A DNA stretch of 61,479 bases, taken from assembly GCA_023259355.1 (NCBI GenBank), contig JAHFQI010000002.1:1-61479 (forward strand). The letters are read 5' to 3'. The notes below the pieces were generated by a model. The model saw only the letters and a list, made by a program, of their open reading frames with translations. It was not told the origin of the DNA and made no database searches. Source of the stretch: Comamonadaceae bacterium. Its GTDB lineage: Bacteria; Pseudomonadota; Gammaproteobacteria; Burkholderiales; Burkholderiaceae_C. The position numbers and the translations under genes were made by a program. Shown here piece by piece: positions 25,954 through 58,452 of the stretch (position 1 is the first letter of the stretch; the number at the start of each line of letters is the position of its first letter).

Positions 25954-27930
25954 ATGCAAGTCACGCGCACCCGTGAAACCAAGAACTACGCCGACGGTGG
26001 GCTGATCCAGACGGTCAAGGAAAAGCTCTTTGGCCCGTCCGGACCGCCCGAGACGATCACCCAGAAGTACGCGCGGCAGGACGCCGAGCGCGCAGCCAAG
26101 ACCCCGGCCGCCGCTGCAATGGCTGCACCGGCACCCGCGCCACAACGCAATGCGATTAGCGACTACGCAAGCGGCATGCAGTCGACGATGCAGCGGCGCG
26201 AGGCGGCGGCGGGCCTGAAGGACGGTGGCACGGTGAAGGCCAAGCCGATCAAGGGCGCGGGCACGGGCACCAGCGACTCGATTGCGCGCAACATGCGCCC
26301 GGGCTCCTTTGTCATGCCGGCCGACTCCACCAAGAAGATGGCGGTCCCGGTCAAGGTGAGCAACGGAGAAAGCGAGTTCACGCCCGAGCAGGTGCATGCC
26401 ATCGGCGCGAAGGTGCTCGATATGGTCAAGGGCAGCACGCACAAGCCGGCGGCCAAGAAGTCCAACAGCCGCGCGGCGCGCCAGTTGGCCGATGGCGGCG
26501 AGGTTCCGCTGGACTCCCAGGCGGCCAGCGATCGCAAGAGGGTAGGCAGCGCGGTTGCCACCTTGTCGGACATGAACACCCGAGCCGGCGCTGCAATTGC
26601 CGATGTGGGCACGATGCCGCTGCGCGGTCTGGCAGGAGCCTACGACACCGCCGTGGTGCGCCCGATGCGCGCGGCCGGCATCAACGCTGCGTACACCAGC
26701 CCGATGGTCAGCCCCGCCGGCGCCGATCCGGCATCGCAGACCCCGTTCTACGACCAGATCAGGGCCCGCGACGCCGTGGGCGCCGGACGCGGCACGGTCA
26801 ATCCCCCTGTGGTGAACCCGATGGCCGCCATGCCCAGCGTGCAGCCGACCACTTCAGCGGCTGGCGCAGGACGCGGATCGGTCAACCCGGCCCCCGCCGC
26901 GATCAACCAGCCTGCCGGTGCAGGCCGCGGCTTCGTCAACCCAACCCCCGTCGACCCGAACGGCCCAGCCCCGAGTTGGAACCCCAACACCACAGTCACC
27001 CTGGGCGGGCAGGCCGGTGCCGCAGTGCAGGGTGCGCCCGGTGTTTCCAAGTTCACGACCGCTGACGGCCGCACGTTGTACTCCAACGTCACCGGCAATG
27101 ACAACAACGTGCTGATGTCCAGCAGGCCCGGCGTGCAGACCATTCCGGCGGCAGCCCCCACGGGTGGCGCATCGCCCGCCGCGGCCGCGATGAGCGCGGG
27201 CTATGACCAGCCCGGGGTGATGAGCAACGGCGGCGGCATGCGGGTGATCGGCGGGCCCAGCGCGGGCTTTTTCCGCACCGCCAATGGCGGCGGCATTGCC
27301 GAGACCCCCAGCCTGAGTACGCTGGGCAACAAGGACATCAGCGCGCGCGAATTGGCACGGCTGAACAACGCCAGCGGCATCGCCGCTGGCCACGACGCGA
27401 CCCTGATGGCCGATGCCCAGGGCCGCGCCGCGGCCCAGCTGGCGGGCCAGCAGATTTCAGCGGATGCGCAGCGCTACGGCACGGACAGCAACGCCAAGAC
27501 CGCGGCGCAGCGCCTGGCCATGGATGCCGGCGTGCACTCGCAAGATGCCCCGTTGAAGGCCAGCCAGGTGAAGCTGGCCCAGCAGACCGACACGGCGCGC
27601 GCCGCCGTTCTTGCGGCCAAGACGCCCGAGGCCAAGGCCGCAGCCGAGGAAACCCTGCGCACCCTGCAGGGCAAGAGCGAGGTCGCGGAGCTGTATTCGA
27701 CCACCGTGGTTCCCGGCGTCGTGGACGCGCTGGGCAACAAATCTCCGAGCACCATCGTTGTCACCGACAGGCGCACCGGCAAACCAGTTTCCTACAGCGC
27801 CGAAGGCCGGCCATTGGCAGACCAACCTGCAGCTGGCGCGCCCAAGGTCTCCACCAAGGCCGACTTCGACAAGCTCGCGCCCGGCACCACGTACACCGGC
27901 GCCGACGGCAAAACCTACCGGAAGCCGTGA
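25954..27930 (+). CDS. Putative internal virion/ejection protein (658 aa) with three AGAGRGxVNP repeats
   Basis: GGAGGACCCGCC lies upstream of ATG 25954. Low-complexity Ala/Gly/Pro regions. Directly precedes the giant gene. Confidence 0.55.
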   Translation: MQVTRTRETKNYADGGLIQTVKEKLFGPSGPPETITQKYARQDAERAAKTPAAAAMAAPAPAPQRNAISDYASGMQSTMQRREAAAGLKDGGTVKAKPIKGAGTGTSDSIARNMRPGSFVMPADSTKKMAVPVKVSNGESEFTPEQVHAIGAKVLDMVKGSTHKPAAKKSNSRAARQLADGGEVPLDSQAASDRKRVGSAVATLSDMNTRAGAAIADVGTMPLRGLAGAYDTAVVRPMRAAGINAAYTSPMVSPAGADPASQTPFYDQIRARDAVGAGRGTVNPPVVNPMAAMPSVQPTTSAAGAGRGSVNPAPAAINQPAGAGRGFVNPTPVDPNGPAPSWNPNTTVTLGGQAGAAVQGAPGVSKFTTADGRTLYSNVTGNDNNVLMSSRPGVQTIPAAAPTGGASPAAAAMSAGYDQPGVMSNGGGMRVIGGPSAGFFRTANGGGIAETPSLSTLGNKDISARELARLNNASGIAAGHDATLMADAQGRAAAQLAGQQISADAQRYGTDSNAKTAAQRLAMDAGVHSQDAPLKASQVKLAQQTDTARAAVLAAKTPEAKAAAEETLRTLQGKSEVAELYSTTVVPGVVDALGNKSPSTIVVTDRRTGKPVSYSAEGRPLADQPAAGAPKVSTKADFDKLAPGTTYTGADGKTYRKP

Positions 27931-30900
27931 TGGCAAAAGACCAATTCGGCGGCATCGAGGTTTCCGGCAACACCGACCAGTTCGGTGGCACCTTGGTAGA
28001 GGACGCGCCCAGGCCCGAGACCAGCACCGCGGCGCGCGTGATGAGCGACCTGGGCAAGTCGCTCAAGAGCGGTGTGCTGCAGCTGCCCGGGCAGATCGCC
28101 GGGCTGGCCGATGTGGCCCCCGCGCTTGCGGTGGGCGCGCGGCCCTTTACTCGCGCAGCCGACGCGCTGGGCGACATGACCGGGTTCCAGCCGGGCAAGT
28201 GGGCCAAGGAGATCCAGTATTCGCCCGAGGCGCAGGCCTCGCAGGCCGAGATCGATAAGACCTGGGACGACCCGAGCGCCGGCGCGGCCGATGTCGCGGG
28301 CGCGTACCTGCGCAACCCGGCCTACACCGCCAACCAGGTGGCGCAGTCGGTTCCCGGCATGGTGGCCGGCGGCGTCGCATCGCGCTTGATCATGGGCGCG
28401 GGCGCTGTCGCCCCGGTGGTGGAAAAGGGCATCGCAGCCGTTCCCGGCTACCTCGAGCGCGTGGTGGGCTCCAAGATGGCCGCGCCGATCGCCGGCGGCA
28501 TCGGCGAGGGAGCCCAACAGACCGGCCAGCAGATGGATCAGGGCTCCGAGCTGCCCGACCAGCAAAAGAACGCGGCGGCCGCGCTGGCCTCTGGCGTCAT
28601 CGACGCTGGCATCGGTGCAGGGCTGGGCCGTGCGGCGAACGCGCTGGGCCTGGAGACCGTCGAGACCATCATGGCCAAGGGCCTGAAGTACGACCAGGCC
28701 GCCAAGCCCCTGAAGCTGGGCGCGCGCACGGCCGGCGGCGCCACCGGCGAGGCTGCGCAGGAAGTGCTGCAAAGCGGGCAGGAACAGGCGTGGCAGAACT
28801 TTGCCGAGGACAAACCGCTGGGCGAGGGCGTCGCGCGCCAAGCCGTCGAGGGCGGCTTGACCGGTGGCGTCATGGGCGGCGCTGCCAACGTCATGGGCGC
28901 GCACCAAGCGCCTGCGCCCGCGCCTGCACCGGCGCCCGCGGTTGCGATCGACCCCAACGCGGGCCCGATCTCGCGCGCGGCCTCGATGCTGGCGCTGCCC
29001 GCTCCGGTGACCCCCGCGAATTGGGAGCTGGTCGACGATCGGGTCCTGCCTGCGCCGCCGACTCTGCCGGCTGGCGCAGCACCGGAACCGGCGCCAGTCG
29101 CGCTACTGCCGGCCCCTGATCCGGACGAGCAGACCATCATGGTGGGCAGTCGCGGCGACGCCGCACCCATGCCCAGCGCCGTGCGCACCGAGGCCCAGAA
29201 CCGGGCGGTCGAGGCCCAGATCGCTGACGAACGGGCCGCGAGCGTGCAGGCCGACGACATCGTGGGTGAGCAGGGCAGGCCCTTCAAGACCCGCATCGCC
29301 GCGCAAGCCGCAGCCAAGCGCGCCGGCGCAGGTTACGCGCCCACCCAGATCAACGGCGGCTTCGTGGCGCGGCCGACCAGCGATGTCACGGATGTCGCAG
29401 CCAAGACCGAGATCGACACGGCCGCGCACGCGGCGGCGACCAGCCCGCACAACGATCTGCCTGAGCCCACCGACGGGCAGAAGGAGGCCGGCAACTACCA
29501 GAAGGGCCACGTGCAGCTGCACGGCCTGAACATCACGGTGGAGAACCCGCGCGGATCCGAGCGCACCGGCAAGCGCCCCGATGGCTCGCAGTGGTCCCAC
29601 ACCATGAGCGACCACTACGGCTACATCAAGCGCACGGTGGGCGCCGACGACGAGCAGGTCGACGTTTACCTGGGTCCGGACTCGCACAACGCCGAGCGCC
29701 AGGTCTACGTGATCGACCAGCTGCACCAGGACACGGGCAAGTTCGACGAGCACAAGGCCATGCTGGGCTACCGGGACGAGGCCAGCGCCATCGAGGCCTA
29801 CAAATCCAACTTCGATGCGGGCTGGAAGGTCGGCCCGGTCACGCCGATGCCGATCGGCGCCTTCAAGGAGTGGCTGAAAGATGGCAACACCAAGGCCCAA
29901 GCGGCCAAAGCCGCCCCGTCCCCCGCGATTGACCAGGGCGCAGCTGCTGGAGGCCAAGCGGCGGGGAGTGACGCCGCAGGGAATGGCGTACCTGTCGATC
30001 ATGTCGCGCCCGTTCAACTCGCACCGGAACTGAGCAATGGCCAAGACGCATCACCAGCAGCCCCGGTCCAAGAGGTCAAAGCCCCGGGAACTGAAACGCC
30101 AACGGCAACGCGAGGCGATGCGGCCGGAACCGCCGCAGCCGCAACCGGAGGCGGAACCGGGGACTTGGAAGCGGCTGGGGTAAGGCCCCTGACGCTGGGC
30201 ATCACGCCTAACGCGGCCGATCCGGTGACCGTGAAGGACGGCATTGTGCACATCGGCAAGGACGCGGCGCAGAACTTCGACAGCGGCGAGCTGATCCGCG
30301 TGCCCGAGGGTGCTACCGACGCGCAGATCAAGAAGGCGCTGACCGATGGCGGGGCAGTCTCGCGCCGGCAGAAGTTCTACGGCGGGGCGAAGGAAGAAGC
30401 GTCCACGCCGGCCGAGCAAGCCAACACCACTGCCGCCGCCGGGCCCGAAACGGCCGAAGCGGGAACCGGGGAAACTCCAGCTCCTGGCAAGAGTGAAGCC
30501 CCGCCGGAAGCGCCGGAGAACAAGCCGCGCGGGCAGGATTCGCTGCTGCAGTTCCCGGTGGGCACGCATGTTCGTATCGTGAGTTGGAACAAGGTAGGCA
30601 GCGAGAATGGTCTGTACGCGGGCCGCATTGGCACCGTCACGAAGGGCCACTTCGACGGTTGGTACATCAAGCTGGACCCGAAGCCGCGCGAGCGCACGAA
30701 AAAAGAGATCCTGGTGCTGCAGTCAAACGGGCTGGAGCGCATCGAGACTGAAACCGCCTCCACCGATCCTGCAACGGCTGTACCAACGCCGACGACGCCA
30801 GCGCGCCCGGCCACTTGGCGCACCAACTTCATCGCTGCGGCCAAGGTAGCGCGTGAGCTGGGCATTGACCCCAAGGGCAAGAAGCTGGCGGCCCTGGTGG

Positions 30901-33900
30901 CCGCCATCGACGCGAAGGACGCCGAAGTCGGAACGAAACAGCCCGAAAGCGGAGCAGCACCGGCCAAAGTTGAAACGCCGGCCGCGCAGCAGGAGCAGCC
31001 GACCAAGAACGTGCTTCAACAGGCCCGCGAAAAAGCCAAGGTCAAGGCTGAGGCAGAAAAGAAGGCGGCCGCGCAGGCCAAGGCCGATGCGCGCGAGGCC
31101 GAGCGCACCCTGTTCAATTCGCTGGCCGCGCGCACCGACCTGGATGGAAAGCCGGTCGAGGACGTACTGGCAGCGGTACAGGCCGGCATCCAGGCCGCCG
31201 GTGTGACCGTCGACGGGTTGAAAGTGCAGCGCCTGGCCCGCGCCATCCACAAGCAGCTGGCCAAGACGTCCGCAGCGCGCGCCAAGGAGCAGCACCGTAT
31301 TCCGGCCGTGCGCGCGGCCGCACTCGGCGCCGCCGTGACCGAGGCATACCCGGACGCGGAGATACCGCCGGAGCAGCACGGCGCGTTCATCAGCGGGTTC
31401 GATCACGCGATGGCCGGCCGCACCAAGAGCACGCTCTCGGGCGATCACCTGGCCGACATGCAGCGCGGCTACGAGGCCGCCATGAAGTGGCGCAAGACCG
31501 AAGAGGGCGCCGCATGGTACGAAGGCCGCCCGGTCAACAAGTTGCAGAACACCGGCATTGATCTGCGCCGCCACTGGGAGTTGATGCGCGAGCAGATGAA
31601 GGCCGGCGAGTCCGACATCAAGCGCGCCTGGGCGCAGATCGAGCGGGCCACCACGCGCGCCGACCTGTTCGCGCCACTGCTGCCCGAAGGGGTGAGCCCC
31701 GGGTTCCGGCTCTACGTCGAGGCCGTGCGCAAGGATCTGCGCACCTTCAAGGACTGGCTGGTGACGAAGCACGTTGCCTCCAGGAACTGGAGCGGCGAAT
31801 ACTTCCGCGGCATGGTGGCGCCGATCGACAAGGTTGTTGAGGGCAGCATTTGGCCCGACGTCGAAGGTGTGGACTCCAGCCAGTTCATCGACGATGAGGC
31901 ATACCGCGCCGAATGGCTGCGCAAGGCGGCCGACCAGTACCTGAACAAGGTGCGCGAGTTCCTGTCGTTCTTGGCCGGCAAGTCGTCCGTGCTGGAAGCC
32001 GCGCAGGCCTTCGATGAGAAGTTCGTCGACAAGGAATTTGTCGCCCGTCATCCCAATGGTGTCGGCTACAAGATGGCGCCGGAGGCGCTGAACGAGTACG
32101 GCAAGAAGCACGCGGGCGAGTCCTACTACTCCAAGGGCGGCGAGCTGTGGGACAGCAGGCCCGGCGATCTGGTGCAGCTGCGCAGCACGTCCGAATGGAC
32201 CAAGGAACTGGTGGACAAGGAAGCCACGATCGCGCTCCCCACCAAGGCCACGCCGCTGACGCCGCCGCGGCTCGATCGCGTCACGCGCGAGGGCATGACC
32301 GACCAGCGCAAGGGCGAAAACGTCACGCCCCAGCAGTTCAAGGAAACCTTCGGGCTGGCCGACGTCGGGTTCGGCAAGTGGGTTGGCTCCAAGCAGGACC
32401 AGGACCACCTGAATTACGCCTTCGACGCGCTGATGGATCTGGCCAACCACTTCGGCACCGCGCCGAAGAACCTGGGATTCGGCGGCCAGCTGCACCTGAC
32501 GATCGGCGCGCTGGGCCACGGCAAGTTCGCCGCGCACTTCCAGGCGGCCCACCCCAGCCCGGAAGGCACGGTCCAGGTCATCAACCTGACCAACACCCGG
32601 GGCGACGGCACCGTGTATCACGAATGGACCCACGGGCTGGACCACAACCTGGGCGGTCAGTGGAAAGAGGTTCGCCGCCGGGTGCTGCGCTACCTTACCC
32701 GATCGCTCGATGGCCAGGAGCAGATTGACGCCAATGCGGCCCGGTTTCTCACCGGCGGCTGGTACTGGAAGGGTGACAAGCGCGCCTCCAAGGCCGACGC
32801 CGCGCGGCGCACGCTTCAGCGCGACGGCGACGGCAAGAACACCACCGCCTACAAGCAGAACGCCGACAAGCTGGGCGAGGATTACTGGGGCAACGAGGCC
32901 GAGCTGATCGCTCGCGCGGCCGAGGCCTGGGCTGCCGACACTCTGGGCGGCACCGACACCTATCTGGTCAATCCGGCCTGGGTCGGGGACGGCGCGGTGA
33001 CGAAAGAAAAGGGCTACCGCGGCACCCCGTACCCCAGCGGCACCGAGCGCAAGAACATGGGCGAGGTATTCACCGCCCTGGCCAAGGCGATCAAGTGGAA
33101 AGATGGGCGGCCGACGGTCGCCCTGGCCGACTTCGAAGCGGCGCTGCCGGAGCACTTCAGCGCGGGCAAGAACCGGGTCAAGGAACTGCTGCAGCCCGGA
33201 GCCATGGAAGCCTTGGAGCAAGAGCTCCTGGCCAAGGAAGCCGCCGACAAGGCTGCTTTTGAGCAGGCGAACGCCGACAAGGCGCGGCGCGAGCAGGAGG
33301 AAATCGACAAGCTGGCCGAGCAGCAGATCAACGACCTGCAGCCGATCGTGGATCCGGCCACGCCGGCCGAGACCATGGGGCCGCTCAGCGATGGCGACCT
33401 GAGCGACATTTTCGACCAGGCGGCCGCCGAGTTGCGCGAAGAGGGCGCCGAGAAGCCCGACCAGCCGGCGCCGGGCGTGCACGCCGAGGAACTTCCGGCC
33501 GAGCAGGACTATGCGGCCGAGCGAGCCGACAAGGACAAGCCATCGGCGCGCGACCTCGCCTTCATCCGGGATCGAGTAGCCAACGGCTCGCCGGTGCTGC
33601 TGCCTGGAACCGCATGGGCTCATCACAACGGATTCCCGACCATCCAAAGCATGCAGTCGATCGAGGGCGCCAGCGTGCGCCACGTCGGCTATGGCATGTT
33701 CGAAGTCACCGGGCGGGACCTCCAGGGCACCTTCGACGCGGGCGGCGCGATGCAGCAAGCCCCGGACGGCACCCCTTACACGATCTTCAGCAAGCGCGGC
33801 GGCACCTGGGAGTATCCGAAGGCGCGGCTGCTGGAAGTGCTGGACAAGGCGATCGGAAAAGCCGAACCAACCACTCCCAATCGCGCCGCATCGCCGACCA

Positions 33901-36900
33901 AGGAACAGTCCGAGCAGTACGCCAAGGAAGACGCCCAGCAAAAGACCGCCGCGCAGCTCATTGCCGACGCCGCGAAGCTGGGCGTCAACGGAGCCGACGA
34001 AGCCCTCAAGGGCCTGTCGGCCCTGTTCGGCGGCAAGCCCGGCCGGCTCAATTCCTTCGGCGCTGGGTTCGATGAAGAGACCTACCAGGCTGCCAAACCG
34101 CACTTCGAGGCCGCGCTCAAGGCCTTCCAGGCATCAGGCAAGTCGCTCAAGGATCTGTTCAAGATGCTGATCCAGCGGTTCGGCGACGGCATCAAGGAAT
34201 ACGCGATCCGCTTCGCCAAGGACCAGAACCTCACGACCCACCTGGGTGCGCAGGCGCAGGACGCGCCGCTGTCGCCGGCCGCCACGATCGCGCGCACGGT
34301 GGCCAAGCGCCTGGAGACCGGCGCCGGATTCGACTGGAAGATGCTCTTCGCCCTTGCCGATTCGGCCTTTGGCGGCACCCAGGCCGAGGGCAAGTACAGC
34401 GTGCAGGACGCCTACGACGCGCTGGAGCTGGGCATGAACCAGTATCTGCGCACGATGCAGGGCCGCGCCTACAACCCGGCCGTGGACGCCGATGCAGCTG
34501 GACAAACCGTGGCGGCGCTGGAGCGCGTGACGCAGCTGCTGCCCACGCAGACCAAGCGCACCAAGGAAAAGGACCAGTACCAGCAGTTCTCCACGGTGCC
34601 GGCCTTCGCCTTCGTGGCCAACTGGGCGGCCAACATCCAGCCGGGCGACGTGATGATGGAGCCGTCTGCTGGCATCGGTGGCCTGGCGGTGTTCGCCAAG
34701 AACGCCGGGGCCCGTCTGATCCTCAATGAGCTGTCCAGCAGCCGCGCCGCGGTGCTGCAAGAGATCTTCCCTGGCGAGAAAATCTACACCGAGAACGCCG
34801 AGCAGATCGACAACATCCTGCCTGAGAGCGAAGTGCCGACCGTGGTGGTGATGAACCCGCCGTTCTCCAACAGCGCCGCGACCGGGGTGAACAAGAAAAC
34901 CGCGATCGGCGCGCAGCACGTCGAGCAGGCCCTGGCCCGGCTCGCCCCTGGCGGGCGACTGGTGGCGATCGTCGGTGAGGGAATGGAGCGCGGCAAGCCG
35001 ACCTTCGCGGCCTGGTGGAAGAAGATCGACGCGGCCTACGACGTGCGCGCCGTGATCCCGGTGGACGGCGCCGGCTATGCCAAGTACGGAACCACCTTCA
35101 ACAATGCCCTGCTGGTGATCGACAAGGTAGCCCCTTCGGGCCGCAATGTTGTAACCGGGAAGGCTTCGAACTACACTGAGCTCATCCCGCTCCTGGGAGC
35201 CATTCGCAATGAACGCCCCGCATCAACCATCGCAGCAGACGGTCGTGGAGAACTTGAACAGCACTTCGCTGAGCAGGAACATTCTGGCCCTGTTCGCCAA
35301 GGCGAAGCAGAGACCGGAGCCGGGACTGGCCCTGGTGGCGCTGATCTTGTGGGTGAAGGACAACCCGCAGGGAAGAGACCCGGCGTGGGTGGAGGCGGTG
35401 GCCGACGCGGCGATTCAGGCCGAAGCGGACGACCCGGAAGCAACGTACCAGAATCTGGCCCACCCGGATCTGGAGAGCGCGCAGAGCCTGGAGGAAGCGG
35501 TCCCGCTGGTAATGAGCCTGGCGCGGGAGTTCGTGACACCGCCAGCGGAGTAACGCTCGGCACCGAAACGGTCGGCCCGCAGGCGCTGACCGAATCCATC
35601 TTCGAAAACTACCAGCCGCAGCGGCTGCAGGTGCCCGGCGCCAAGGCGCACCCGGGCGCCCTGGTGCAGTCCGCGGCGATGGCCTCGGTGCTGCCACCCA
35701 AGCCGGTGTACGTGCCCAACCTGCCGGCCAAGACGATCACCGAGGGCGCGCTGTCGATCGCGCAGATCGAGGCGGTGGTCTACGCCGGCCAAGCGCACGC
35801 CGAACTGCTGGAACGCACCCCCGAAGGCGTGCAACCGCGCCGCGGCTTCTTCATCGGGGATGGCACCGGAGTGGGCAAGGGCCGCGAGATCGGCGGCATC
35901 ATCCTGGACAACATCCGTCAGGGCCGCAAGAAGCACGTGTGGATCTCCGAGAAGCAGGGACTGCTCAATGACGCGGCCCGCGATTTCGCTGGCGTGCTGG
36001 GAACCACGGCAGATTCGGTCCTCAAGAGCGGGCAACTGTTCAACCTGAGCAAGCGCACGCAGCCCGGGACGTGGAAGGTAACGGCCGAGGACGGCATCCT
36101 CTTTACTACCTACTCGACCCTGCGCTCGGCGCAGAAGTTCGGCCAGTTCGACGCTGGGGATCCGGTCGACCTGAAAGACGGAAGTAGCGGCACGCTGAAA
36201 TCCATCGCCAAGAGCAAACGCACCATCAGCGTGATTCTTGAGGGACAGAGCAAGGCCGTGACCATCCAGTTCGCCGCGGTGGACTCGATCGGCGGCGATG
36301 CGGCGTGGGAGCGCAACCTTGGCAATAAGCCGCCCGCCGGTTGGAAGCCGCGCACGCGCATGGAGCAGATCAAGGAATGGCTGGGCCCGGATTTCGACGG
36401 CGTAATCGCCTTCGATGAGGCGCACAACGCCGGCAACGCGGTGGCGATCAAGGGCGAGCGCGGCTTTACCGACCCGTCCGCGCAGGCGCTGGCGGTGGTG
36501 GAGCTGCAAAAGCAGTTGCCCAATGCCCGGGTGGTGTACGTGTCGGCCACCGGTGCAACCCAGGTGTCCAACCTGTCCTTTGCGACCCGCTTGGGGCTGT
36601 GGGGACCTGGCACTCCGTTCGCGGCGGTGCACCACTTCATCGCGCAGATGACCGCGGGCGGCCTGGCCACCATGGAATTGGTGGCGCGCGACATGAAGCA
36701 GATGGGCGCCTACCTCGCGCGCTCGCTGTCCTACGACGGAGTGACCTACTCGCGCGTGGAGCACGAACTGACCGAGGTGCAGCGCGAGATCTACGATCGG
36801 CTGGCGCAAGCGTGGCAGGTGGTCCTCAAGAACATGAACGTGGCCCTGGAGATCACCAAGGGCGGCAAGGACGGCAAGGCCAAGGGCGCGGCCCGATCGG

Positions 36901-39900
36901 CCTTCTGGGGCGCGCAACAGCGCTTTTTCAACCAGATCATCACGTCGATGCAGATGCCCGCCGTGCTGGCGCAGATGGAAGCGGACATTGCCGCCGGCCA
37001 TGCGGTGGTGGCGCAGCTGGTCAACACCAACGAGGCGCAGGCCAACCGCGCCATGGGCAAGCTCAAGGAAGAGGACGCCGACCTGGAGGAGTTGGACCTG
37101 ACCCCGCGCGACCAGCTGATTGGCATGGTCGAGAAGGCATTCCCGGTCCAGCAGTACGAAGAGTACGTTGACGATGAGGGCAAGAAGCGGGTCCGCCCGG
37201 TGGTCGACTCCAAGGGCAATCCGGTGCTGAACAAGCAGGCCGTGAAGATGCGCGACAAGCTGGTCGACGATTTGCGCAACATCCGGGTGCCCGAAGGCCC
37301 CCTGGAGCTGCTGGTCAACCACTTTGGCCCCGATGTGGTGGCCGAAGTCACCGGACGCGGCCAGCGCGTGGTCGCCGGCCAGTGGAGCCGCGAGCGCGGT
37401 GAAAAGGCCGGCAAGGCGTTCATCCAGAAGCGCGGATCCAGCGCCAACCGGGCCGACTCCGAGGCCTTCCAGGCCGACAAGAAGCGCCTGCTGGTGTTCT
37501 CCGACGCGGGCGGTACCGGCTTTTCGTTCCATTCGGACCTGGGCGCCAAGAACCAGCGCAAGCGCATGCACTACCTGCTGCAGCCTGGCTGGCGTGCTGA
37601 CAAGGCCGTGCAGGGGTTCGGTCGCACGCACCGCACCAACGAGGTCAACCAGCCGCATTACTACCTTGCCTCGACCGACATTCCGGCGCAAAAGCGGTTC
37701 CTGTCCGCGATCGCGCGGCGCCTGGACCAGCTGGGCGCCTTGACCAAGGGCCAGCGCGACACCGCCAACCAGGGCCTGTTCAGCGAAAAGGACAACCTGG
37801 AATCCAAGTACGCGACCCAGGCCGTGCGCTCGCTGCTCGATGGCGCGAACGCGGGCCAGATCGCGGACCTGGACTTCAACGAGCTGCTCCGGCAGATGGG
37901 TCTGGAGGACATCGTTGATCCGACGACCCACCAGATCGCGGAATCGAAGTACCCGCCCACGCAGCAGTTCCTGAATCGCATGCTGTCGCTGACCCTGGAC
38001 ATGCAGGGCAAGGTGTTCGATGCCTTCGCCACGCTGATGGACGAAAAGGTCCAGGTGGCGATCAAGACCGGCGAGATTGATGCCGGGGTGGAGACCATCC
38101 GGGCGCTGGAGACCAAGATCCAACGCGAGGAACTGGCCTACACCGATCCCAAGAGCGGCGCCGAGACCAAATACGTCGAGCTCGAGCTCACCCACGCCAC
38201 GAAGATTTACCCGTTCCAGTCGCTGGCCGAGCGCAGCAAGAGCTACTTCGCCAGCAAACGCAAGAGCGATTACGTGGTCAACGTCAAGAGCGGCCGGGTC
38301 TACTTGCGCACCGCCACGGGCATGCAGACCCAGCACAAGGACGGCCGCCTGCTCGATCGCTTCTCGATGGAGGGCACCGGCGGGCACGCCACGCGCACCA
38401 GCGACGACTTCGCCAAGAAGGAAAACTGGAAAGAGGTCAAGGAGGCTGAAGCCCGGGCCCTGTGGGAAGCGGAGAACGCCAAGAAGGAGCCGACCTGGAC
38501 CGAGCGCGCTCACATGCTTGTGGGCGCCATCCTGCCGATTTGGGACCGCATCAATGCCGACCGCACCCTCAAGGTGGTGCGCACGCAGACGACGGACGGC
38601 CGGCGGCTGCTGGGCATGCGCATCTACGAGGACCAGCTGGGCGACATTCTCAAGCGCCTGAACGTCGAAAGCGCCGTGGCCAAGATGAAGCCGGCGCAGA
38701 TCATGGCCGAGGTCCTCAAGGGCAAGGTCGCGGAGCTGGCCAACGGCTGGAAGATTGAGCGCGCCCGCGTGTCCAACGACGTGCGGGTGGAAATCATCGC
38801 TCGTTCCCTGTACGGGGCGGCCGAGCGCGAGCTCCTGGGCTACGGGGTGATCGGCGAGCGCATTTCATTCCAGCAGCGCTTTTTCATCCCCACCGGCGCC
38901 GATGGCGTCCAGGTGCTCGAAAAGATCCTCAAGAGCAAGCCCGCGGTGGACCTGACGGACCCGCGCCAGCAGACCGCCGCCAAGGCGGCTGACGACGAGG
39001 ACGCCGGGCAATTCAGGCGCGGCGACGCCACGCAGAGCCGCGGCCTGTCCTCGGCCGAGATCCGTACGGTCCTGGCCCAGGCCTTGGCCGCCCTGAAGGT
39101 GCCCTACGCGCTGCATGCCACGCTGGAAGCGGCGCGAGCGGCCACCGGTTTCAGCGACATCCCGAACGGCGTGAAAGGGGCCTACTTCAAGGGCAAGTTG
39201 CACCTGATCGCGGAGAACATCGCCGGGCCGCTGATGGCTGAGGAAGTTTTCTGGCATGAGGTCAATCACGCCGGGCTCGATGCGATGTACGGCAGCGGCT
39301 CCAAGGCTTACGAGAACGCGCTGCGCGGGCTGGCCCTGCAAAACGCCAACATTCGCGCGGCCGCCAAGGTCTGGATGGAGCGCTACGGCAAAGAGGATTA
39401 CGAGGGCCGTGTCGCTGCGGGCGTGAACCCAGAGCGGGCGATGCTGCGCACCAAGCTGCAGGCCGTCGACGAGGCGCTGGCCGAACTGGCCGGGCGCAAC
39501 GCGACGATCAAGGGGCTGCCCCGGTTCATCGCCCAGGTGCAGAAGTTCATGCGCGCGATCGGGCTGACGCGCCTGGCCAACGCGCTGGAGGGCATGACGG
39601 ACGCCCAGGCGCTTTCGATGATCCTGGGCGCGCGTGACGCAGTGACGCACCGCCGACAGGCTCAAGGCGCTGGCGCGCTGCAACCGGCCTTCAGCGCTGC
39701 GGTGGAAGGGCCTTCCGCATCCGATGGCGTCGCGCAGTTCTCGCGCGGCGGGCACCTGGGCGCGCTCGACGCGCGTCAGGAGCGGGCGCTGAAGGCCGTT
39801 GGGGCCCTCAAGCAGCCGCTGACCGCCAAGGAGCGCTTCACCCAGCTGCGCTCCAACCTGGGCACGCGCCTGGCGCAGGGGCTGTTCGACCAGTTCGCGC

Positions 39901-42218
39901 CGATCAAGGACCTGGACCCCAAGGCCTACATGATGGCGCGCCTGTCCAAGGGCAGCGAGGGCACCATGGAGGCGGCGCTGCTGTACGGGAAGCCCTTCCT
40001 GCGCGACGGGGTGCCTGACGTGGACATGGCCGAGGGTGGGTTCGCCAAGGTTCTGGCCGCGCTAAAGGGCGAGCATGACCGGTTCCTGTGGTGGGTGGCA
40101 GCCAACCGCGCCGAGCGGCTAAAGGCCGAGGGCCGCGAGAACCTGTTTACCGACCAGGACATCAGCGACTTGAAGACGCTGGCCGACGGCGACATGGCCG
40201 ACGGCACCAGCCGGGCCCAGGCGTTCGCCACGGCCTTGCGCGGTCTGAACGAGTACAACGACGCGGTGCTGAAAATGGCCGAGGAATCCGGCCTGATCGA
40301 CGCCGAGGCGCGCGAGCTGTTCAAGGGCCAGCCCTACGTGCCGTTCTACCGCGTCATGGAAGACGAGATGACCGGCCCGCGCTTTTCGTCGGGACTGGTG
40401 AACCAGAGCGCCTACAAAAAGCTCAAGGGCGGCACCAACCAGCTGAACGACGACCTGCTGGAGAACATGCTGCTGAACTGGGCGCACCTATACACCGCGG
40501 CGGCGCGCAACCGGGCGGCCCTGGCCACCATGGAAGCGGCCGACCGCCTGGCCATCGCCTACAAGATCAACCCGCACGCCGGCAGCACGAAAAAGGCCGT
40601 CAAGGTGATGCGGGATGGCGTGGCCGAGCACTGGCAGATCGAGGACCCATACCTGCTCGAGGCGGTGACGGCGCTGCACTACACGCCCAGCCCGCTGATG
40701 AAGCCGCTGGCCAAGATGAAGCAGCTGATGACCTTCGGCGTGACGGTCAATCCGGCCTTCAAGGTGCGCAACCTGCTGCGCGACTCGATCGCCTCGCTGG
40801 CCCTGGCCGACATGAACTACAACCCGCTCAAGAACGTCGTGCAGGGCTGGAAGACCAGCGGCCAGAACGCGCAGACCTATGCCAGCATGCTCGCGTCGGG
40901 CGGGGTGATGAAGTTCGGCACCCAGGAGAACGCTGAGCGCATGCGCCACAAGATCGCCAGGCTGGGCGGAACGCTGGTGAGCCAGGGCAACTGGTCGCAG
41001 CTGTCGCAATCCATGATCCAACTGTGGGAGGCCTACGAGGAACTGGGCGACCGCAGCGAGAACGTGAACCGCACGGCGCTGTACGAGCAGCTGATCGCCA
41101 AGGGCAAGACCCATGCGGAGGCCAGCTTCATGGCGCGCGACCTGATGGACTTTTCCATGAGCGGGCGCTACGCGGTGGTGCGGTTCCTGATTCAGACGGT
41201 GCCGTTCCTGAATGCCCGGCTGCAGGGCATGTACAAGCTGGGGCGCGCCGCGAAGGAAGACCCCAAGCGCTTTGCCACGATCGCCGCGGCCGTGTCGATG
41301 GCCAGCCTGGCACTGCTGGCCGCGTACAGCGATGACGACGACTGGAAAAAGCGTGAGGACTGGGACCGGGACAACTACTGGTGGTTCAAGGTTGGAGACA
41401 CCGCCTACCGGATCCCGCGGCCGTTCGAGATCGGCGCCATCGGCACGCTGGCCGAGCGCACCGCGGAACTGATGTTCTCCAAGGAAATGACGGCGCAGCG
41501 CTTCGGCGATCGCCTGTCGTTCATGATCGGCCAGACCTTCGCGTTGAACCCGGTGCCCCAGGCAGTCTCGCCGCTGTTCGACGTCTATGCCAATCGGGAC
41601 GCCTTCAGGCGCCAGCCGATCGAGTCGATGCACGACAAGAGCCTGCAGCCGCAGGACCGCCATGACGAGCGCACCAGCGAAGCCGCTCGCTTCCTGGGCC
41701 AGCTGGGCCTACCCGAGCCGCTGGCCCTGGCCAAGGGCGAGTACAACGAGCTCAGCCCGAAGCAATGGGACTTCCTGCTGCGCGGGTACTTCAGCTGGAT
41801 CGGCGCGTCGGTGGCTTCGCTGACCGACTACGCCATCCGGCCCATGATGGACCGCGGCGCGCGCCCGGACATGAAGATCCGGGGCGGGTTCGTGGAGCCG
41901 CTACCCAGCGGCGGCAGCCGCTATGTGAGCGTCTTCTACGAGCAGGCGCGCGACATCCAGGAGGCCTTTGCGAGCTACCGCGCGGCGCTGAAGGACGGCG
42001 ACACCGAACGCGCGCAGCAGCTACTGGGCCAGGGCAAGGTGCAAAACCACATCCAGGTGGGCCGCATCCGTCAGCGACTGGACGAGCTGAACGCGCTGGC
42101 CAAGCGCATCGAGGGCAACCGGATGATGAGCGGGGAGGTCAAGCGCACCAGGCTCGACGCGATCGATGCCAAGCGCAACGAGATCGCCAGCAGCTACGTT
42201 CTGAGGAAGACTCCGTAG
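27930..42218 (+). CDS. Giant polyvalent protein (4,762 codons from ATG 27930). Modules: Gly-zipper hydrophobic N-region, InPase-like domain, HExxH module 1, N6-adenine methyltransferase, strawberry-notch/SNF2-like helicase, HExxH module 2, and a large C-terminal domain
   Basis: GNYQKGH ... ENPRG ... YGYI ... DEHK at about 29440..29890. HEWTH at 32629..32643. EPSAGIGG at about 34659 and NPPF at 34854..34865. GDGTGVGKGRE at about 35866. FDEAHNAGN at about 36411. DAGGTGFSFH and GRTHRTNE at about 37500..37640. HEVNH at 39255..39269. DDDDWKKREDWDRDNYWWF at about 41330. Confidence 0.85.
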   Translation: MAKDQFGGIEVSGNTDQFGGTLVEDAPRPETSTAARVMSDLGKSLKSGVLQLPGQIAGLADVAPALAVGARPFTRAADALGDMTGFQPGKWAKEIQYSPEAQASQAEIDKTWDDPSAGAADVAGAYLRNPAYTANQVAQSVPGMVAGGVASRLIMGAGAVAPVVEKGIAAVPGYLERVVGSKMAAPIAGGIGEGAQQTGQQMDQGSELPDQQKNAAAALASGVIDAGIGAGLGRAANALGLETVETIMAKGLKYDQAAKPLKLGARTAGGATGEAAQEVLQSGQEQAWQNFAEDKPLGEGVARQAVEGGLTGGVMGGAANVMGAHQAPAPAPAPAPAVAIDPNAGPISRAASMLALPAPVTPANWELVDDRVLPAPPTLPAGAAPEPAPVALLPAPDPDEQTIMVGSRGDAAPMPSAVRTEAQNRAVEAQIADERAASVQADDIVGEQGRPFKTRIAAQAAAKRAGAGYAPTQINGGFVARPTSDVTDVAAKTEIDTAAHAAATSPHNDLPEPTDGQKEAGNYQKGHVQLHGLNITVENPRGSERTGKRPDGSQWSHTMSDHYGYIKRTVGADDEQVDVYLGPDSHNAERQVYVIDQLHQDTGKFDEHKAMLGYRDEASAIEAYKSNFDAGWKVGPVTPMPIGAFKEWLKDGNTKAQAAKAAPSPAIDQGAAAGGQAAGSDAAGNGVPVDHVAPVQLAPELSNGQDASPAAPVQEVKAPGTETPTATRGDAAGTAAAATGGGTGDLEAAGVRPLTLGITPNAADPVTVKDGIVHIGKDAAQNFDSGELIRVPEGATDAQIKKALTDGGAVSRRQKFYGGAKEEASTPAEQANTTAAAGPETAEAGTGETPAPGKSEAPPEAPENKPRGQDSLLQFPVGTHVRIVSWNKVGSENGLYAGRIGTVTKGHFDGWYIKLDPKPRERTKKEILVLQSNGLERIETETASTDPATAVPTPTTPARPATWRTNFIAAAKVARELGIDPKGKKLAALVAAIDAKDAEVGTKQPESGAAPAKVETPAAQQEQPTKNVLQQAREKAKVKAEAEKKAAAQAKADAREAERTLFNSLAARTDLDGKPVEDVLAAVQAGIQAAGVTVDGLKVQRLARAIHKQLAKTSAARAKEQHRIPAVRAAALGAAVTEAYPDAEIPPEQHGAFISGFDHAMAGRTKSTLSGDHLADMQRGYEAAMKWRKTEEGAAWYEGRPVNKLQNTGIDLRRHWELMREQMKAGESDIKRAWAQIERATTRADLFAPLLPEGVSPGFRLYVEAVRKDLRTFKDWLVTKHVASRNWSGEYFRGMVAPIDKVVEGSIWPDVEGVDSSQFIDDEAYRAEWLRKAADQYLNKVREFLSFLAGKSSVLEAAQAFDEKFVDKEFVARHPNGVGYKMAPEALNEYGKKHAGESYYSKGGELWDSRPGDLVQLRSTSEWTKELVDKEATIALPTKATPLTPPRLDRVTREGMTDQRKGENVTPQQFKETFGLADVGFGKWVGSKQDQDHLNYAFDALMDLANHFGTAPKNLGFGGQLHLTIGALGHGKFAAHFQAAHPSPEGTVQVINLTNTRGDGTVYHEWTHGLDHNLGGQWKEVRRRVLRYLTRSLDGQEQIDANAARFLTGGWYWKGDKRASKADAARRTLQRDGDGKNTTAYKQNADKLGEDYWGNEAELIARAAEAWAADTLGGTDTYLVNPAWVGDGAVTKEKGYRGTPYPSGTERKNMGEVFTALAKAIKWKDGRPTVALADFEAALPEHFSAGKNRVKELLQPGAMEALEQELLAKEAADKAAFEQANADKARREQEEIDKLAEQQINDLQPIVDPATPAETMGPLSDGDLSDIFDQAAAELREEGAEKPDQPAPGVHAEELPAEQDYAAERADKDKPSARDLAFIRDRVANGSPVLLPGTAWAHHNGFPTIQSMQSIEGASVRHVGYGMFEVTGRDLQGTFDAGGAMQQAPDGTPYTIFSKRGGTWEYPKARLLEVLDKAIGKAEPTTPNRAASPTKEQSEQYAKEDAQQKTAAQLIADAAKLGVNGADEALKGLSALFGGKPGRLNSFGAGFDEETYQAAKPHFEAALKAFQASGKSLKDLFKMLIQRFGDGIKEYAIRFAKDQNLTTHLGAQAQDAPLSPAATIARTVAKRLETGAGFDWKMLFALADSAFGGTQAEGKYSVQDAYDALELGMNQYLRTMQGRAYNPAVDADAAGQTVAALERVTQLLPTQTKRTKEKDQYQQFSTVPAFAFVANWAANIQPGDVMMEPSAGIGGLAVFAKNAGARLILNELSSSRAAVLQEIFPGEKIYTENAEQIDNILPESEVPTVVVMNPPFSNSAATGVNKKTAIGAQHVEQALARLAPGGRLVAIVGEGMERGKPTFAAWWKKIDAAYDVRAVIPVDGAGYAKYGTTFNNALLVIDKVAPSGRNVVTGKASNYTELIPLLGAIRNERPASTIAADGRGELEQHFAEQEHSGPVRQGEAETGAGTGPGGADLVGEGQPAGKRPGVGGGGGRRGDSGRSGRPGSNVPESGPPGSGERAEPGGSGPAGNEPGAGVRDTASGVTLGTETVGPQALTESIFENYQPQRLQVPGAKAHPGALVQSAAMASVLPPKPVYVPNLPAKTITEGALSIAQIEAVVYAGQAHAELLERTPEGVQPRRGFFIGDGTGVGKGREIGGIILDNIRQGRKKHVWISEKQGLLNDAARDFAGVLGTTADSVLKSGQLFNLSKRTQPGTWKVTAEDGILFTTYSTLRSAQKFGQFDAGDPVDLKDGSSGTLKSIAKSKRTISVILEGQSKAVTIQFAAVDSIGGDAAWERNLGNKPPAGWKPRTRMEQIKEWLGPDFDGVIAFDEAHNAGNAVAIKGERGFTDPSAQALAVVELQKQLPNARVVYVSATGATQVSNLSFATRLGLWGPGTPFAAVHHFIAQMTAGGLATMELVARDMKQMGAYLARSLSYDGVTYSRVEHELTEVQREIYDRLAQAWQVVLKNMNVALEITKGGKDGKAKGAARSAFWGAQQRFFNQIITSMQMPAVLAQMEADIAAGHAVVAQLVNTNEAQANRAMGKLKEEDADLEELDLTPRDQLIGMVEKAFPVQQYEEYVDDEGKKRVRPVVDSKGNPVLNKQAVKMRDKLVDDLRNIRVPEGPLELLVNHFGPDVVAEVTGRGQRVVAGQWSRERGEKAGKAFIQKRGSSANRADSEAFQADKKRLLVFSDAGGTGFSFHSDLGAKNQRKRMHYLLQPGWRADKAVQGFGRTHRTNEVNQPHYYLASTDIPAQKRFLSAIARRLDQLGALTKGQRDTANQGLFSEKDNLESKYATQAVRSLLDGANAGQIADLDFNELLRQMGLEDIVDPTTHQIAESKYPPTQQFLNRMLSLTLDMQGKVFDAFATLMDEKVQVAIKTGEIDAGVETIRALETKIQREELAYTDPKSGAETKYVELELTHATKIYPFQSLAERSKSYFASKRKSDYVVNVKSGRVYLRTATGMQTQHKDGRLLDRFSMEGTGGHATRTSDDFAKKENWKEVKEAEARALWEAENAKKEPTWTERAHMLVGAILPIWDRINADRTLKVVRTQTTDGRRLLGMRIYEDQLGDILKRLNVESAVAKMKPAQIMAEVLKGKVAELANGWKIERARVSNDVRVEIIARSLYGAAERELLGYGVIGERISFQQRFFIPTGADGVQVLEKILKSKPAVDLTDPRQQTAAKAADDEDAGQFRRGDATQSRGLSSAEIRTVLAQALAALKVPYALHATLEAARAATGFSDIPNGVKGAYFKGKLHLIAENIAGPLMAEEVFWHEVNHAGLDAMYGSGSKAYENALRGLALQNANIRAAAKVWMERYGKEDYEGRVAAGVNPERAMLRTKLQAVDEALAELAGRNATIKGLPRFIAQVQKFMRAIGLTRLANALEGMTDAQALSMILGARDAVTHRRQAQGAGALQPAFSAAVEGPSASDGVAQFSRGGHLGALDARQERALKAVGALKQPLTAKERFTQLRSNLGTRLAQGLFDQFAPIKDLDPKAYMMARLSKGSEGTMEAALLYGKPFLRDGVPDVDMAEGGFAKVLAALKGEHDRFLWWVAANRAERLKAEGRENLFTDQDISDLKTLADGDMADGTSRAQAFATALRGLNEYNDAVLKMAEESGLIDAEARELFKGQPYVPFYRVMEDEMTGPRFSSGLVNQSAYKKLKGGTNQLNDDLLENMLLNWAHLYTAAARNRAALATMEAADRLAIAYKINPHAGSTKKAVKVMRDGVAEHWQIEDPYLLEAVTALHYTPSPLMKPLAKMKQLMTFGVTVNPAFKVRNLLRDSIASLALADMNYNPLKNVVQGWKTSGQNAQTYASMLASGGVMKFGTQENAERMRHKIARLGGTLVSQGNWSQLSQSMIQLWEAYEELGDRSENVNRTALYEQLIAKGKTHAEASFMARDLMDFSMSGRYAVVRFLIQTVPFLNARLQGMYKLGRAAKEDPKRFATIAAAVSMASLALLAAYSDDDDWKKREDWDRDNYWWFKVGDTAYRIPRPFEIGAIGTLAERTAELMFSKEMTAQRFGDRLSFMIGQTFALNPVPQAVSPLFDVYANRDAFRRQPIESMHDKSLQPQDRHDERTSEAARFLGQLGLPEPLALAKGEYNELSPKQWDFLLRGYFSWIGASVASLTDYAIRPMMDRGARPDMKIRGGFVEPLPSGGSRYVSVFYEQARDIQEAFASYRAALKDGDTERAQQLLGQGKVQNHIQVGRIRQRLDELNALAKRIEGNRMMSGEVKRTRLDAIDAKRNEIASSYVLRKTP
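35209..35553 (+). CDS. Candidate nested (+1 frame) gene inside the giant ORF linker, 114 aa
   Basis: ATG follows GGGAG 9 nt upstream, and the stop is TAA. Hand count of GC at third positions: 95/114 in this frame against 49/115 in the giant frame over the same bases. The product is not low-complexity (4 Arg). Confidence 0.4.
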   Translation: MNAPHQPSQQTVVENLNSTSLSRNILALFAKAKQRPEPGLALVALILWVKDNPQGRDPAWVEAVADAAIQAEADDPEATYQNLAHPDLESAQSLEEAVPLVMSLAREFVTPPAE

Positions 42219-47780: not shown

Positions 47781-48342
47781 GGAAAAGTAAGGTCTCCGGT
47801 AGTGGCCCATGGTGATGCTGGGCTCGTCGCAGCGCGGGCTTCGCCTTCACATCGACATTCATAGCTATAAGCTGGGACACCACGACATTGTTGGCGAAGG
47901 TGAACAGTTGGAATAATTTCCAGGGTTCAAGCCCGTCGCGGTAGTCGGGCCGCCACGCCTGACGCTCCACCGGGCCAGCCGCAAATTCAGGCAGGTGGAC
48001 GCCGTGGTATCGCCAGTCGGTATGCGCGATTGCTTGCTGGCGCATGTCCATCACCTGCTTGTGCAGTGTTTTAAGATCCGGCTCGCCTTTGAAAATCGAT
48101 GGTCCGATCTTCGGCAGGGCCATTCCTCTAGCCTCGCTGTCCACAAATGACCTGGCATAGATGATGATCGTGGCGACGAACACTGCCTCGGTTGCGAATG
48201 GATGGGATGCACTACGTTTTTCCGCTGGCAGGTCGTCCAACTCGCTCAGCGCCCGCAGATAGTTAAGGGCTTCCTCGATGTCAAGGTGGGCTAGATAGAG
48301 CCGGTTGGCTTTCTGTTCCTTGTGCGCCAAGCCGCCGTTCAC
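47773..48342 (-). CDS. Hypothetical cargo protein, possible HEPN-like (AbiU2/AbiV-like) domain
   Basis: GTG 48342 in a GTGA overlap with the integrase stop. Lower GC3 than the phage core. All-helical composition with DMRQQAIAHTD (R-x5-H). Confidence 0.65.
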   Translation of the reverse strand: MNGGLAHKEQKANRLYLAHLDIEEALNYLRALSELDDLPAEKRSASHPFATEAVFVATIIIYARSFVDSEARGMALPKIGPSIFKGEPDLKTLHKQVMDMRQQAIAHTDWRYHGVHLPEFAAGPVERQAWRPDYRDGLEPWKLFQLFTFANNVVVSQLIAMNVDVKAKPALRRAQHHHGPLPETLLFLA

Positions 48343-50650: not shown

Positions 50651-51288
50651 AGCTTGAGCCTTTGAAACTCGACGACCCACACCCAGGGATTGGCATCCCA
50701 GCTGCCGGGGCCGTTGATGCGCTCCCAAAGCAGGCGGTAGTAGTCGCGCTCGCTGTAGCCGTGCGGAACGGCCTGAGCACCTTCCTCGCGGCGCCATAGC
50801 TCCACGCCCTCGGCCATCGCATCGGCCTCGCTGATCGCCTGCAGCGGCTCGATGCGCAGGCCGGTCACTTCCAGCAGGATGCGGGAGGCCACGCGGGGCA
50901 TGTGGATGGATGGGATCCACCTGTCACCGAACTTCCCCAGCGGCAGGTTCATCGTCGCGCGATAGGCGACGTCAGGGTTGGCGCTGGTCCATGCCCGCTT
51001 ATCCCATGTCTCGCGCACCCACAGCCGGTCGCCGGGCTGTCCGTAGGGGCACAGCGACAGGTAGGTGTGCGGCTCGGGCGAGTTCACGGCTTCATTGAGC
51101 AGGTCGCGGCCTTGCCTGTCCTTGAACATCAACCGCGTGCAGCCGCCCATTCCAATGCTCACATCCGGCTGCGGCTTGATCGCCCTCCGCGTCTGCGTCT
51201 TGGTGCCGGCCAGCAGGGCGCGCACCATCGGCGCGCTGAACAGGATCGGGCGCTCCTTCGGCTTTATCAGCGGGTCAAGCAGGTACAT
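50647..51288 (-). CDS. ASCH domain-like protein
   Basis: ILFSAPMVRALLAGTKTQTRRAIKPQP plus ... GDRLWVRETW is a pattern common in phage ASCH proteins. Confidence 0.6.
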   Translation of the reverse strand: MYLLDPLIKPKERPILFSAPMVRALLAGTKTQTRRAIKPQPDVSIGMGGCTRLMFKDRQGRDLLNEAVNSPEPHTYLSLCPYGQPGDRLWVRETWDKRAWTSANPDVAYRATMNLPLGKFGDRWIPSIHMPRVASRILLEVTGLRIEPLQAISEADAMAEGVELWRREEGAQAVPHGYSERDYYRLLWERINGPGSWDANPWVWVVEFQRLKL

Positions 51289-58430: not shown

Positions 58431-58452
58431 GTTGTCTCCAGGGGTGAAAGGG

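Follow-up and report, generated by a model that had tools for sequence, protein, structure and literature searches.

A putative small gene conserved within the methyltransferase-helicase linker of a phage polyvalent-protein gene

Results

Layout of the embedded reading frame

The window analysed here is a stretch of 61,479 nucleotides (nt) from a Comamonadaceae bacterium (contig JAHFQI010000002.1 of GenBank assembly GCA_023259355.1), with a GC content of 66.6% and a genome of the tailed-phage type. It carries a giant gene whose product contains the Pfam domains InPase, LPD1, a weakly matching methyltransferase (MTS), a Strawberry-notch-like helicase (AAA_34 and Helicase_C_4) and LPD38, the content that defines a polyvalent protein with a methyltransferase-SWI2/SNF2 dyad. 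Wholly within this giant gene (27927-42218), on the same strand and offset by +1, lies a second open reading frame (ORF) at 35209-35553. On the evidence of its sequence and that of its relatives, this nested ORF is very probably a real, selected and separately translated protein-coding gene.

The nested gene exactly fills the unconserved spacer between the DNA methyltransferase and Strawberry-notch-like helicase modules (Table 1), so that the middle of the giant-frame linker is the nested gene read one base earlier. The methyltransferase module closes with the motif GYAKYGTTFNNALLVIDK, our upstream anchor, and the helicase module opens at the conserved motif ALTESIFENYQPQRL, our downstream anchor, 30 nt past the nested stop. 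Upstream of the nested ATG the +1 frame is open for 18 codons. The features that a sequence-only reading of this DNA had picked out were confirmed: an ORF running from ATG to TAA and encoding 114 residues with only 4 Arg, a GGGAG 9 nt before the ATG, and an upstream TAA at 35152. The product begins MNAPHQPSQQ... and is without cysteine, lipobox or hydrophobic signal.

That reading had also described a switch of G/C at codon position 3 (GC3) to the +1 frame, and the switch held on recounting: across 35209-35553, 95/115 codons end in G or C in the +1 frame (stop codon counted) against 49/114 in the giant frame. GC at the three codon positions of the nested frame (0.69/0.43/0.83) is close to that of the giant gene as a whole (0.68/0.46/0.86), while giant-frame GC3 over the entire linker is 0.52. 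In a sliding profile the nested region is the deepest dip among the 4,763 codons, at 0.43-0.52 versus a mean of 0.86.

Such a switch, together with an open +1 frame, might be a compositional artefact of a Gly/Arg/Pro/Glu-rich linker in a high-GC genome, with no second gene involved. Two observations within the window fit this explanation. Synonymous shuffles confined to the window leave the +1 frame open in 31% of cases (the giant frame in 49%), and another linker of the same gene, at 29919-30158, rich in Ala/Gly/Pro/Thr/Gln, shows a second, weaker dip, with giant-frame GC3 of 0.5-0.6. Against the artefact, both alternative frames of that control linker are closed by stops and none of its frames rises above a GC3 of 0.73. 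With its alternative frames closed, we rejected 29919-30158 as a second nested gene and treated it as a plain low-complexity linker and negative control. Its behaviour means that a GC3 dip alone is no proof and, since a long +1 open frame is not improbable in 67% GC DNA, comparison with relatives was needed to decide. The significance of the nested ORF comes from its phase-exact composition and, above all, from comparative data.

Table 1. Coordinates of the embedded gene, its host gene and other features of the window
Feature	Position	Strand	Remarks
Giant polyvalent-protein gene, host frame	27927..42218	+	4,763 codons; ORF list, Pfam scan
Methyltransferase module end, giant-frame motif GYAKYGTTFNNALLVIDK	35073..35126	+	Upstream anchor; kept in all relatives
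Inter-domain linker of giant protein	35127..35609	+	161 codons; G/R/P/S/E-rich, unconserved, predicted disordered
TAA closing the +1 frame upstream of the nested start	35152..35154	+	
Giant-frame motif ELIPLLGAIRNERP	35178..35219	+	Same nucleotides hold the nested ribosome-binding site and start (AAT-GAA read as A-ATG-AA)
Shine-Dalgarno-like GGGAG	35195..35199	+	9-nt spacer before ATG
Putative nested +1-frame gene	35209..35553	+	ATG to TAA; 114 residues, 12.3 kDa, isoelectric point (pI) 4.5, predicted all-alpha
Strawberry-notch-like helicase module	35583..38096	+	Pfam AAA_34, ResIII, Helicase_C_4
Large terminase	9969-11531		Phage context
Portal	11535-13616		Phage context
Major head protein	15064-16164		Phage context
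Extra methyltransferases, integrase-like, RecT and DUF5131 set	2545-3750, 53795-55282, 48339-49454, 57225-58463, 51275-52435	+, -, -, -, -	

Conservation among relatives

Scanning the methyltransferase-helicase junction across 185,579 species genomes gave 80 loci, 77 of them scorable through the conserved flanking anchor motifs. These fell into two classes, with long linkers (20 loci, 158-259 residues) or short ones (57 loci, 78-105 residues). All 20 long-linker loci show the giant-frame GC3 dip together with an open +1 frame that stops within the linker after 112-193 codons, whereas each of the 57 short-linker loci has normal GC3 and no such ORF. The homologous +1 ORFs of the long-linker relatives encode 108-179 residues, and their hosts span Beta-, Alpha- and Deltaproteobacteria, Verrucomicrobiia, Opitutaceae, Clostridia, Bacteroidota and Planctomycetota. 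An intact start and stop in related elements had been named by the sequence-only reading as a check on the ORF; both are present in all long-linker relatives, and so is the Shine-Dalgarno (SD) sequence.

Further loci came from metagenomes, where relatives were retrieved with the junction alignment as query; a metagenome scan with a three-sequence alignment of the nested protein returned none. All 80 of these additional loci contain the +1 ORF, and 79 are positive with the family profile. The same nested layout occurs in an IMG/VR phage contig (L004) and in two MOBP/MPF_T conjugative plasmids, Thioflavicoccus pTHIMO01 and the plasmid of Methylotuvimicrobium alcaliphilum 20Z. In the latter, an unannotated 114-residue ORF at L090:6311-6655, equivalent to NC_016108.1 complement(105153..105497), lies inside the single coding sequence of WP_014133156.1, which makes this plasmid a convenient cultured system for the nested gene. 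Searches of GenBank phages by megablast with the region, of phages and plasmids by tblastn with the nested protein, and of phages by tblastn with the giant-gene junction gave no match.

A neighbour-joining tree built from the flanking domains places the short-linker loci in a single derived clade, and the ORF-bearing loci are deep and paraphyletic. The short-linker loci (L023-L084) are mostly alphaproteobacterial integrative elements with a different linker of about 100 residues that is well conserved in the giant frame (…TLMDWIGAHLPPRLPVDPSV…RSVRGYLNRAAR…), suggesting that a structured linker has replaced the tether and nested gene. One further locus, L051:2501-3442 from Oxalobacteraceae bacterium GrIS 1.11, has a giant gene of the long type in which the motif LLPLLNQIRHDR, including the ATG, is kept and the linker measures 78 residues. 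Its +1 frame no longer codes for the small protein, apparently through a deletion that left the giant gene intact.

Start and stop signals

Among 91 unique nested ORFs, 88 begin with ATG and 3 with GTG, and the position of the start is fixed at 79-118 nt (mostly 82) past the upstream anchor. The start codon is embedded in the giant-frame motif (R/K)-(N/D/H)-(D/E/A/G)-(R/G), in which xAT-GAx gives ATG; motif and ATG placement are the same in 23/23 loci first analysed. An SD tetramer (GGAG, GAGG or AGGA) is found at positions -18 to -5 in 86 of the 91 homologues, compared with 12% at random positions in the same loci.

These signals bear on a different account of the segment, that it belongs to the giant polypeptide and is entered through sequencing or assembly frameshifts, or programmed ones, a variant being a truncated product made of the methyltransferase and the small domain. 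Giant phage proteins sometimes use recoding, and in the window the 18 open +1 codons before the ATG make a shift physically possible. In L012, L015, L016 and L019, however, a +1 stop stands only 1-4 codons before the ATG; this leaves no room for a shift, so that frameshift entry is excluded. Independent assemblies of many origins share the layout, the ATG and SD are conserved, a return to the helicase frame would take two shifts, and no giant protein among the database matches holds the domain in frame. In low-GC genomes, moreover, stops are actively kept out of the giant frame throughout the segment. We regard this account as very improbable and, given the +1 stops before the ATG and the conserved SD and ATG, rejected a classification as a programmed ribosomal frameshift segment.

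At the other end of the ORF, the distance from the nested stop to the downstream anchor (YQPQRL), at the start of the helicase module, is nearly constant, mostly 50-65 nt. Such regularity would suit an ORF translated merely as a regulatory device, by re-initiation to a helicase-only protein or by control of giant-gene expression, whose peptide has no function. Yet 76 of the 91 loci lack any giant-frame ATG, GTG or TTG between the nested stop and the helicase anchor, and we rejected termination-reinitiation yielding a helicase-only protein since there is no conserved restart codon. Conservation at the protein level, a coevolution-supported fold and free-standing homologues (see below) point instead to a selected protein and make a purely regulatory role very improbable.

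Selection on the two frames

We compared substitutions in the overlap with those in its flanks using 14 independent close pairs. Differences at nested positions 1/2/3 number 66/35/115, compared with 73/39/363 at giant-frame positions 1/2/3 of the flanks; giant-frame third positions are thus the least variable in the overlap. The same pairs differ over the overlap by 91 amino acids in the nested frame versus 155 in the giant frame. The substitutions follow the nested codon phase, in keeping with the earlier suggestion of selection on the nested product.

More distant comparisons agree. Nested-frame identity exceeds giant-frame identity in 13 of 14 divergent pairs. In the nested frame the ratio of non-synonymous to synonymous substitution (dN/dS, Nei-Gojobori) is 0.46-0.97 for 13 of these pairs, the exception being a saturated pair above 1; in the giant frame, 11 pairs reach at least 1.0 and the other three lie at 0.87-0.93. 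The nested value lies below the giant-frame value in 13/14. The embedded frame is under purifying selection.

The giant frame is nevertheless stop-free across the overlap in every locus. In the 32-47% GC loci L015, L016 and L019, only 0.1-0.3% of shuffles that preserved the nested protein and its codon usage left the giant frame open. Summed over 53 non-redundant metagenome loci, which are very divergent though not strictly independent, log10 P reaches -45.6 for openness of the giant frame and -77 for that of the +1 frame. Both frames are maintained, with selection acting mainly on the nested one.

A protein family with a predicted fold

A word-indexed search identified two metagenome homologues of 114 and 113 residues, 65% and 63% identical to the nested product, with both frames open in their contigs. 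A profile search of 1.84 billion representative proteins extended the family to 72 clusters at E <= 1e-3 (71-286 residues, mostly about 105-120), and none of these matches lies inside a giant protein. Gene finders report nested ORFs only if the giant gene is broken or truncated at the edge of a contig. The 23 ORFs first collected align and share an N-terminal LN-x-(T/P)-(L/I)-(S/N)-Q, a central L-x-W-(A/G)-L-E, an N-P-E and a C-terminal E-A-A...L. A profile built from metagenome proteins only matches the linkers in the +1 frame and never in the other two, and it recovers loci of Clostridiales (E = 1.4e-7), Opitutaceae, Verrucomicrobiia, Planctomycetota and Thermodesulfobacteriota. The 91 unique sequences are diverged, at 12-40% identity to the window protein, and the family is acidic (median pI 4.8).

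The nested product belongs to no described family and represents a new one. Searches of Pfam, PHROGs, NCBIfam and PADLOC gave isolated matches only, at E > 0.003, and the best match among PDB sequence profiles had E = 0.52. With Foldseek, the predicted nested fold found nothing in PDB or BFVD better than about E = 0.9, with template-modelling (TM) scores <= 0.33.

Structure prediction of the 114-residue product, which the sequence-only reading had proposed as a check, gave a confident result: from a 62-sequence alignment, AlphaFold2 models a compact seven-helix domain with a predicted local distance difference test score (pLDDT) of 89.4 and a predicted TM score (pTM) of 0.77. In the AlphaFold2 model of the giant-frame region, made with 31 homologues, the flanking methyltransferase and helicase score pLDDT 80-96, and residues 113-215 of the segment, about nt 35235-35543 and nearly exactly the nested gene, score 31-45; the giant-frame reading of the nested bases comes to about 33. 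The description of this stretch as a G/R/P/S/E low-complexity linker in the giant frame thus holds; it is rich in those residues and predicted to be disordered. Across relatives the giant-frame linkers are polar, of low complexity and unalignable, even in AT-rich hosts.

We can now return to the compositional explanation of the ORF. It does not account for an ORF, start and SD kept in about 100 loci, some of them in 32-47% GC genomes, in which a long ORF out of frame is very improbable, nor for substitutions in the nested phase or a product that folds at pLDDT 89. On these sequence comparisons the artefact may be considered already refuted, and the chance that it is correct is vanishingly small.

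Free-standing and rearranged members

Some family members are encoded outside giant genes. P0040 (L089) and P0072 (L094), the latter in a cluster that includes Ramlibacter HEX9718520.1, are ordinary non-overlapped genes in which the giant-equivalent frame is closed by stops. P0027 (Variovorax WP_286667060.1, L093), P0020 (L088) and P0056 stand alone, with neither a giant gene nor junction motifs nearby. At L088:7689-8496 and L093:8135-8768 the giant-equivalent frame, -1 to the small gene, is open across the domain though the giant gene is absent; at 64% GC this may be coincidence, or else a remnant of earlier nesting. The neighbours of the free-standing homologues contain no Pfam domain, two adjacent 347-residue genes are mutually unrelated, and the neighbourhoods gave no functional clue.

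Two other loci resembled independent genes. At L092:8355 (FWPV01002116.1, a contig shared with L174) the giant gene is broken, immediately ahead of the methyltransferase TP motif, by one in-frame stop, which may be real or a sequencing error; this is why the nested ORF (P0075) and a 2,626-residue helicase protein were called as separate genes. We rejected this locus as an unfused methyltransferase, small gene and helicase operon, as it has the usual nested layout and one giant-gene stop. At L085:4084-5090 (also L086 and L087), an unrelated N-terminal region of about 180 residues, with an acidic tail, runs in frame into the nested-family domain; only some 25 helicase codons follow the domain before a break common to several samples, and the locus adjoins a type III-like Mod/Res pair. 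It was rejected as a larger free-standing homologue and is a rearranged remnant of a giant gene.

Free-standing homologues, and a nested frame of seemingly older composition, are also what would be seen if an independent small gene had been swallowed when its neighbours fused and then persisted as a dead relic, unexpressed and unselected, its composition undecayed. The remnant at L085 and the deletion at L051 show that the region can decay. A dead gene, however, would not have its ORF, ATG and SD still intact across 91 unique, highly diverged sequences from several phyla, nor would it show an excess of third-position differences in its own phase among close pairs. We consider a dead relic extremely unlikely.

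Phage context

Besides terminase, portal and major head protein genes, the window encodes two extra DNA methyltransferases (one N6/N4-type and one C5-type), an integrase-like protein, RecT and a DUF5131 protein. No tRNA genes were found in it. The phage looks temperate and heavily invested in DNA modification.

Discussion

The features of a same-strand embedded, or overprinted, gene, namely a position wholly inside the host gene in another frame, its own start signals, conservation, selection and a host frame that is kept open, are all present at this locus. Several points weigh against reading it as a functional gene. The case for translation is drawn from sequence signals and predictions. 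Within the window alone, the openness of neither frame is significant (P = 0.31 for the +1 frame and 0.49 for the giant frame). The nested dN/dS, at 0.46-0.97, is high for a structured protein, and third positions make up 53% of close-pair differences in the nested frame against 76% in the flanks, so the protein is either fast-evolving or hampered by the overlap. The nested gene is also dispensable for the giant gene, having been lost from L051 and being absent from the whole short-linker clade. As to function, what we propose below is read from position, as neither fold nor family has a match and the neighbours of free-standing copies are uninformative.

Taking the locus as an embedded gene, we envisage that ribosomes can start at the conserved SD and ATG, within the last conserved motif of the methyltransferase module, and that nested translation would end about 30 nt before the first conserved helicase motif, giving a protein predicted to be folded, acidic, all-helical and about 12 kDa in mass. 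In the giant frame, ribosomes would translate these bases into a disordered polar tether whose sole constraint is to contain no stop. Judged by composition, the nested frame seems the older of the two, and the tether is probably the derived reading; the methyltransferase and helicase genes may then have been joined by read-through of a pre-existing small gene in its -1 frame. Because the nested frame combines genome-typical composition, a fold, purifying selection and free-standing relatives, such a read-through fusion is the most economical history. A possible alternative origin is de novo birth within the linker, followed by escape to free-standing copies. Of the two interpretations offered by the sequence-only reading, the relic of a once-independent gene fits only as a possible origin, given the free-standing homologues and the 'older' composition; its status as a relic does not survive the finding of purifying selection.

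The other interpretation was an overprinted gene in the style of Rz/Rz1. Its first half stands, on the conserved ORF and SD, the phase of substitutions and the fold; the likeness to Rz/Rz1 goes no further than the arrangement. In phage lambda, as here, a larger phage gene encloses a small one completely, on the same strand and in the +1 frame; the small gene has its own start signals, and both Rz and Rz1 are made. Rz1, which binds Rz, is an outer-membrane lipoprotein rich in Pro and belongs to the lysis cassette, whereas the nested product has no signal peptide, lipobox, cysteine or lysis context, and its host encodes a polyvalent protein. With no lipobox Cys, no hydrophobic signal and a host that is not Rz, we rejected membership of the Rz1 (o-spanin) family. 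The present case also differs in that the host frame over the nested gene encodes a disordered tether and not a functional domain, and in that the arrangement is conserved across phyla, phages, plasmids and integrative elements.

A second parallel is comS of Bacillus subtilis, likewise a small gene lying out of frame inside, and co-transcribed with, a giant multi-domain gene, srfA. comS encodes 46 residues, overlaps an enzymatic module of srfA, a gene for a non-ribosomal peptide synthetase, and occurs only within a narrow group of Bacillus. The nested gene, in contrast, overlaps a linker only, codes for a folded domain of 110-180 residues and spans Clostridia to Proteobacteria.

A third comparison is with the overprinted genes of small viruses (review, PMC8227390), such as A/B and D/E of phiX174. 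They resemble our case in their dual coding, asymmetric selection and one disordered, atypical partner. In classic overprinting the short embedded ORF is the young, atypical and often disordered partner; here the embedded ORF is genome-typical with a confidently predicted fold and the host segment is the atypical and disordered one. Nor is genome compaction an obvious driver in a 60-kb phage. Long overlapping genes reported in bacteria, as in Pseudomonas aeruginosa (PMC8850804), are similarly unannotated long ORFs within annotated genes for which purifying selection has been argued; they are mostly antisense, lineage-restricted and young, unlike the same-strand and apparently ancient nested gene. 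According to a preprint (10.1101/724807), long co-directional overlaps are essentially absent from prokaryotes. The nested gene is set apart from Rz/Rz1, comS and the small-virus cases by its site in a disordered linker, its folded embedded partner and its conservation across phyla and element types.

The host gene itself has the combination known as the methyltransferase-helicase dyad of polyvalent proteins, of which DarB of phage P1 is the archetype (PMC5512222). Iyer et al. 2017 (PMC5512222) described this dyad in phages, plasmids and conjugative elements and proposed that it methylates and protects incoming DNA. Their text does not use the words 'overlapping', 'frameshift', 'linker' or 'alternative frame' and mentions no gene embedded in the dyad, and a full-text literature search found no report of one.

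The invariant position of the nested gene is our reason for linking its function to the dyad. That the small protein, made from the same mRNA, works with the methyltransferase-helicase pair, as a regulator or inhibitor, as a specificity partner or by chaperoning the giant injected protein, seems to us an evenly balanced proposition. More tentatively, and with rather less than even confidence, we suggest that the embedded gene is an ancient and obligatory third component of a methyltransferase-helicase anti-restriction module, the tether having been made by reading through an older gene, so that the polyprotein overprinted the small gene and not the reverse.

If this is true, no other same-strand, fully embedded gene known from prokaryotic mobile elements would match it in breadth of conservation. 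Because gene callers do not allow long overlaps on one strand, they have missed a whole protein family at about 100 loci, including plasmids of cultured bacteria, where it is without annotation. The family also offers a clean and densely sampled instance of dual coding: it is the embedded partner that folds and is 'old-looking', and the host frame yields a disordered tether. This suggests that, in multi-domain proteins formed by fusion, a disordered linker can originate when a gene lying in between is read through, and that such linkers can harbour genes. The co-encoded acidic protein of 12 kDa is a candidate regulator or partner of the methyltransferase-helicase pairs thought to shield incoming DNA from restriction.

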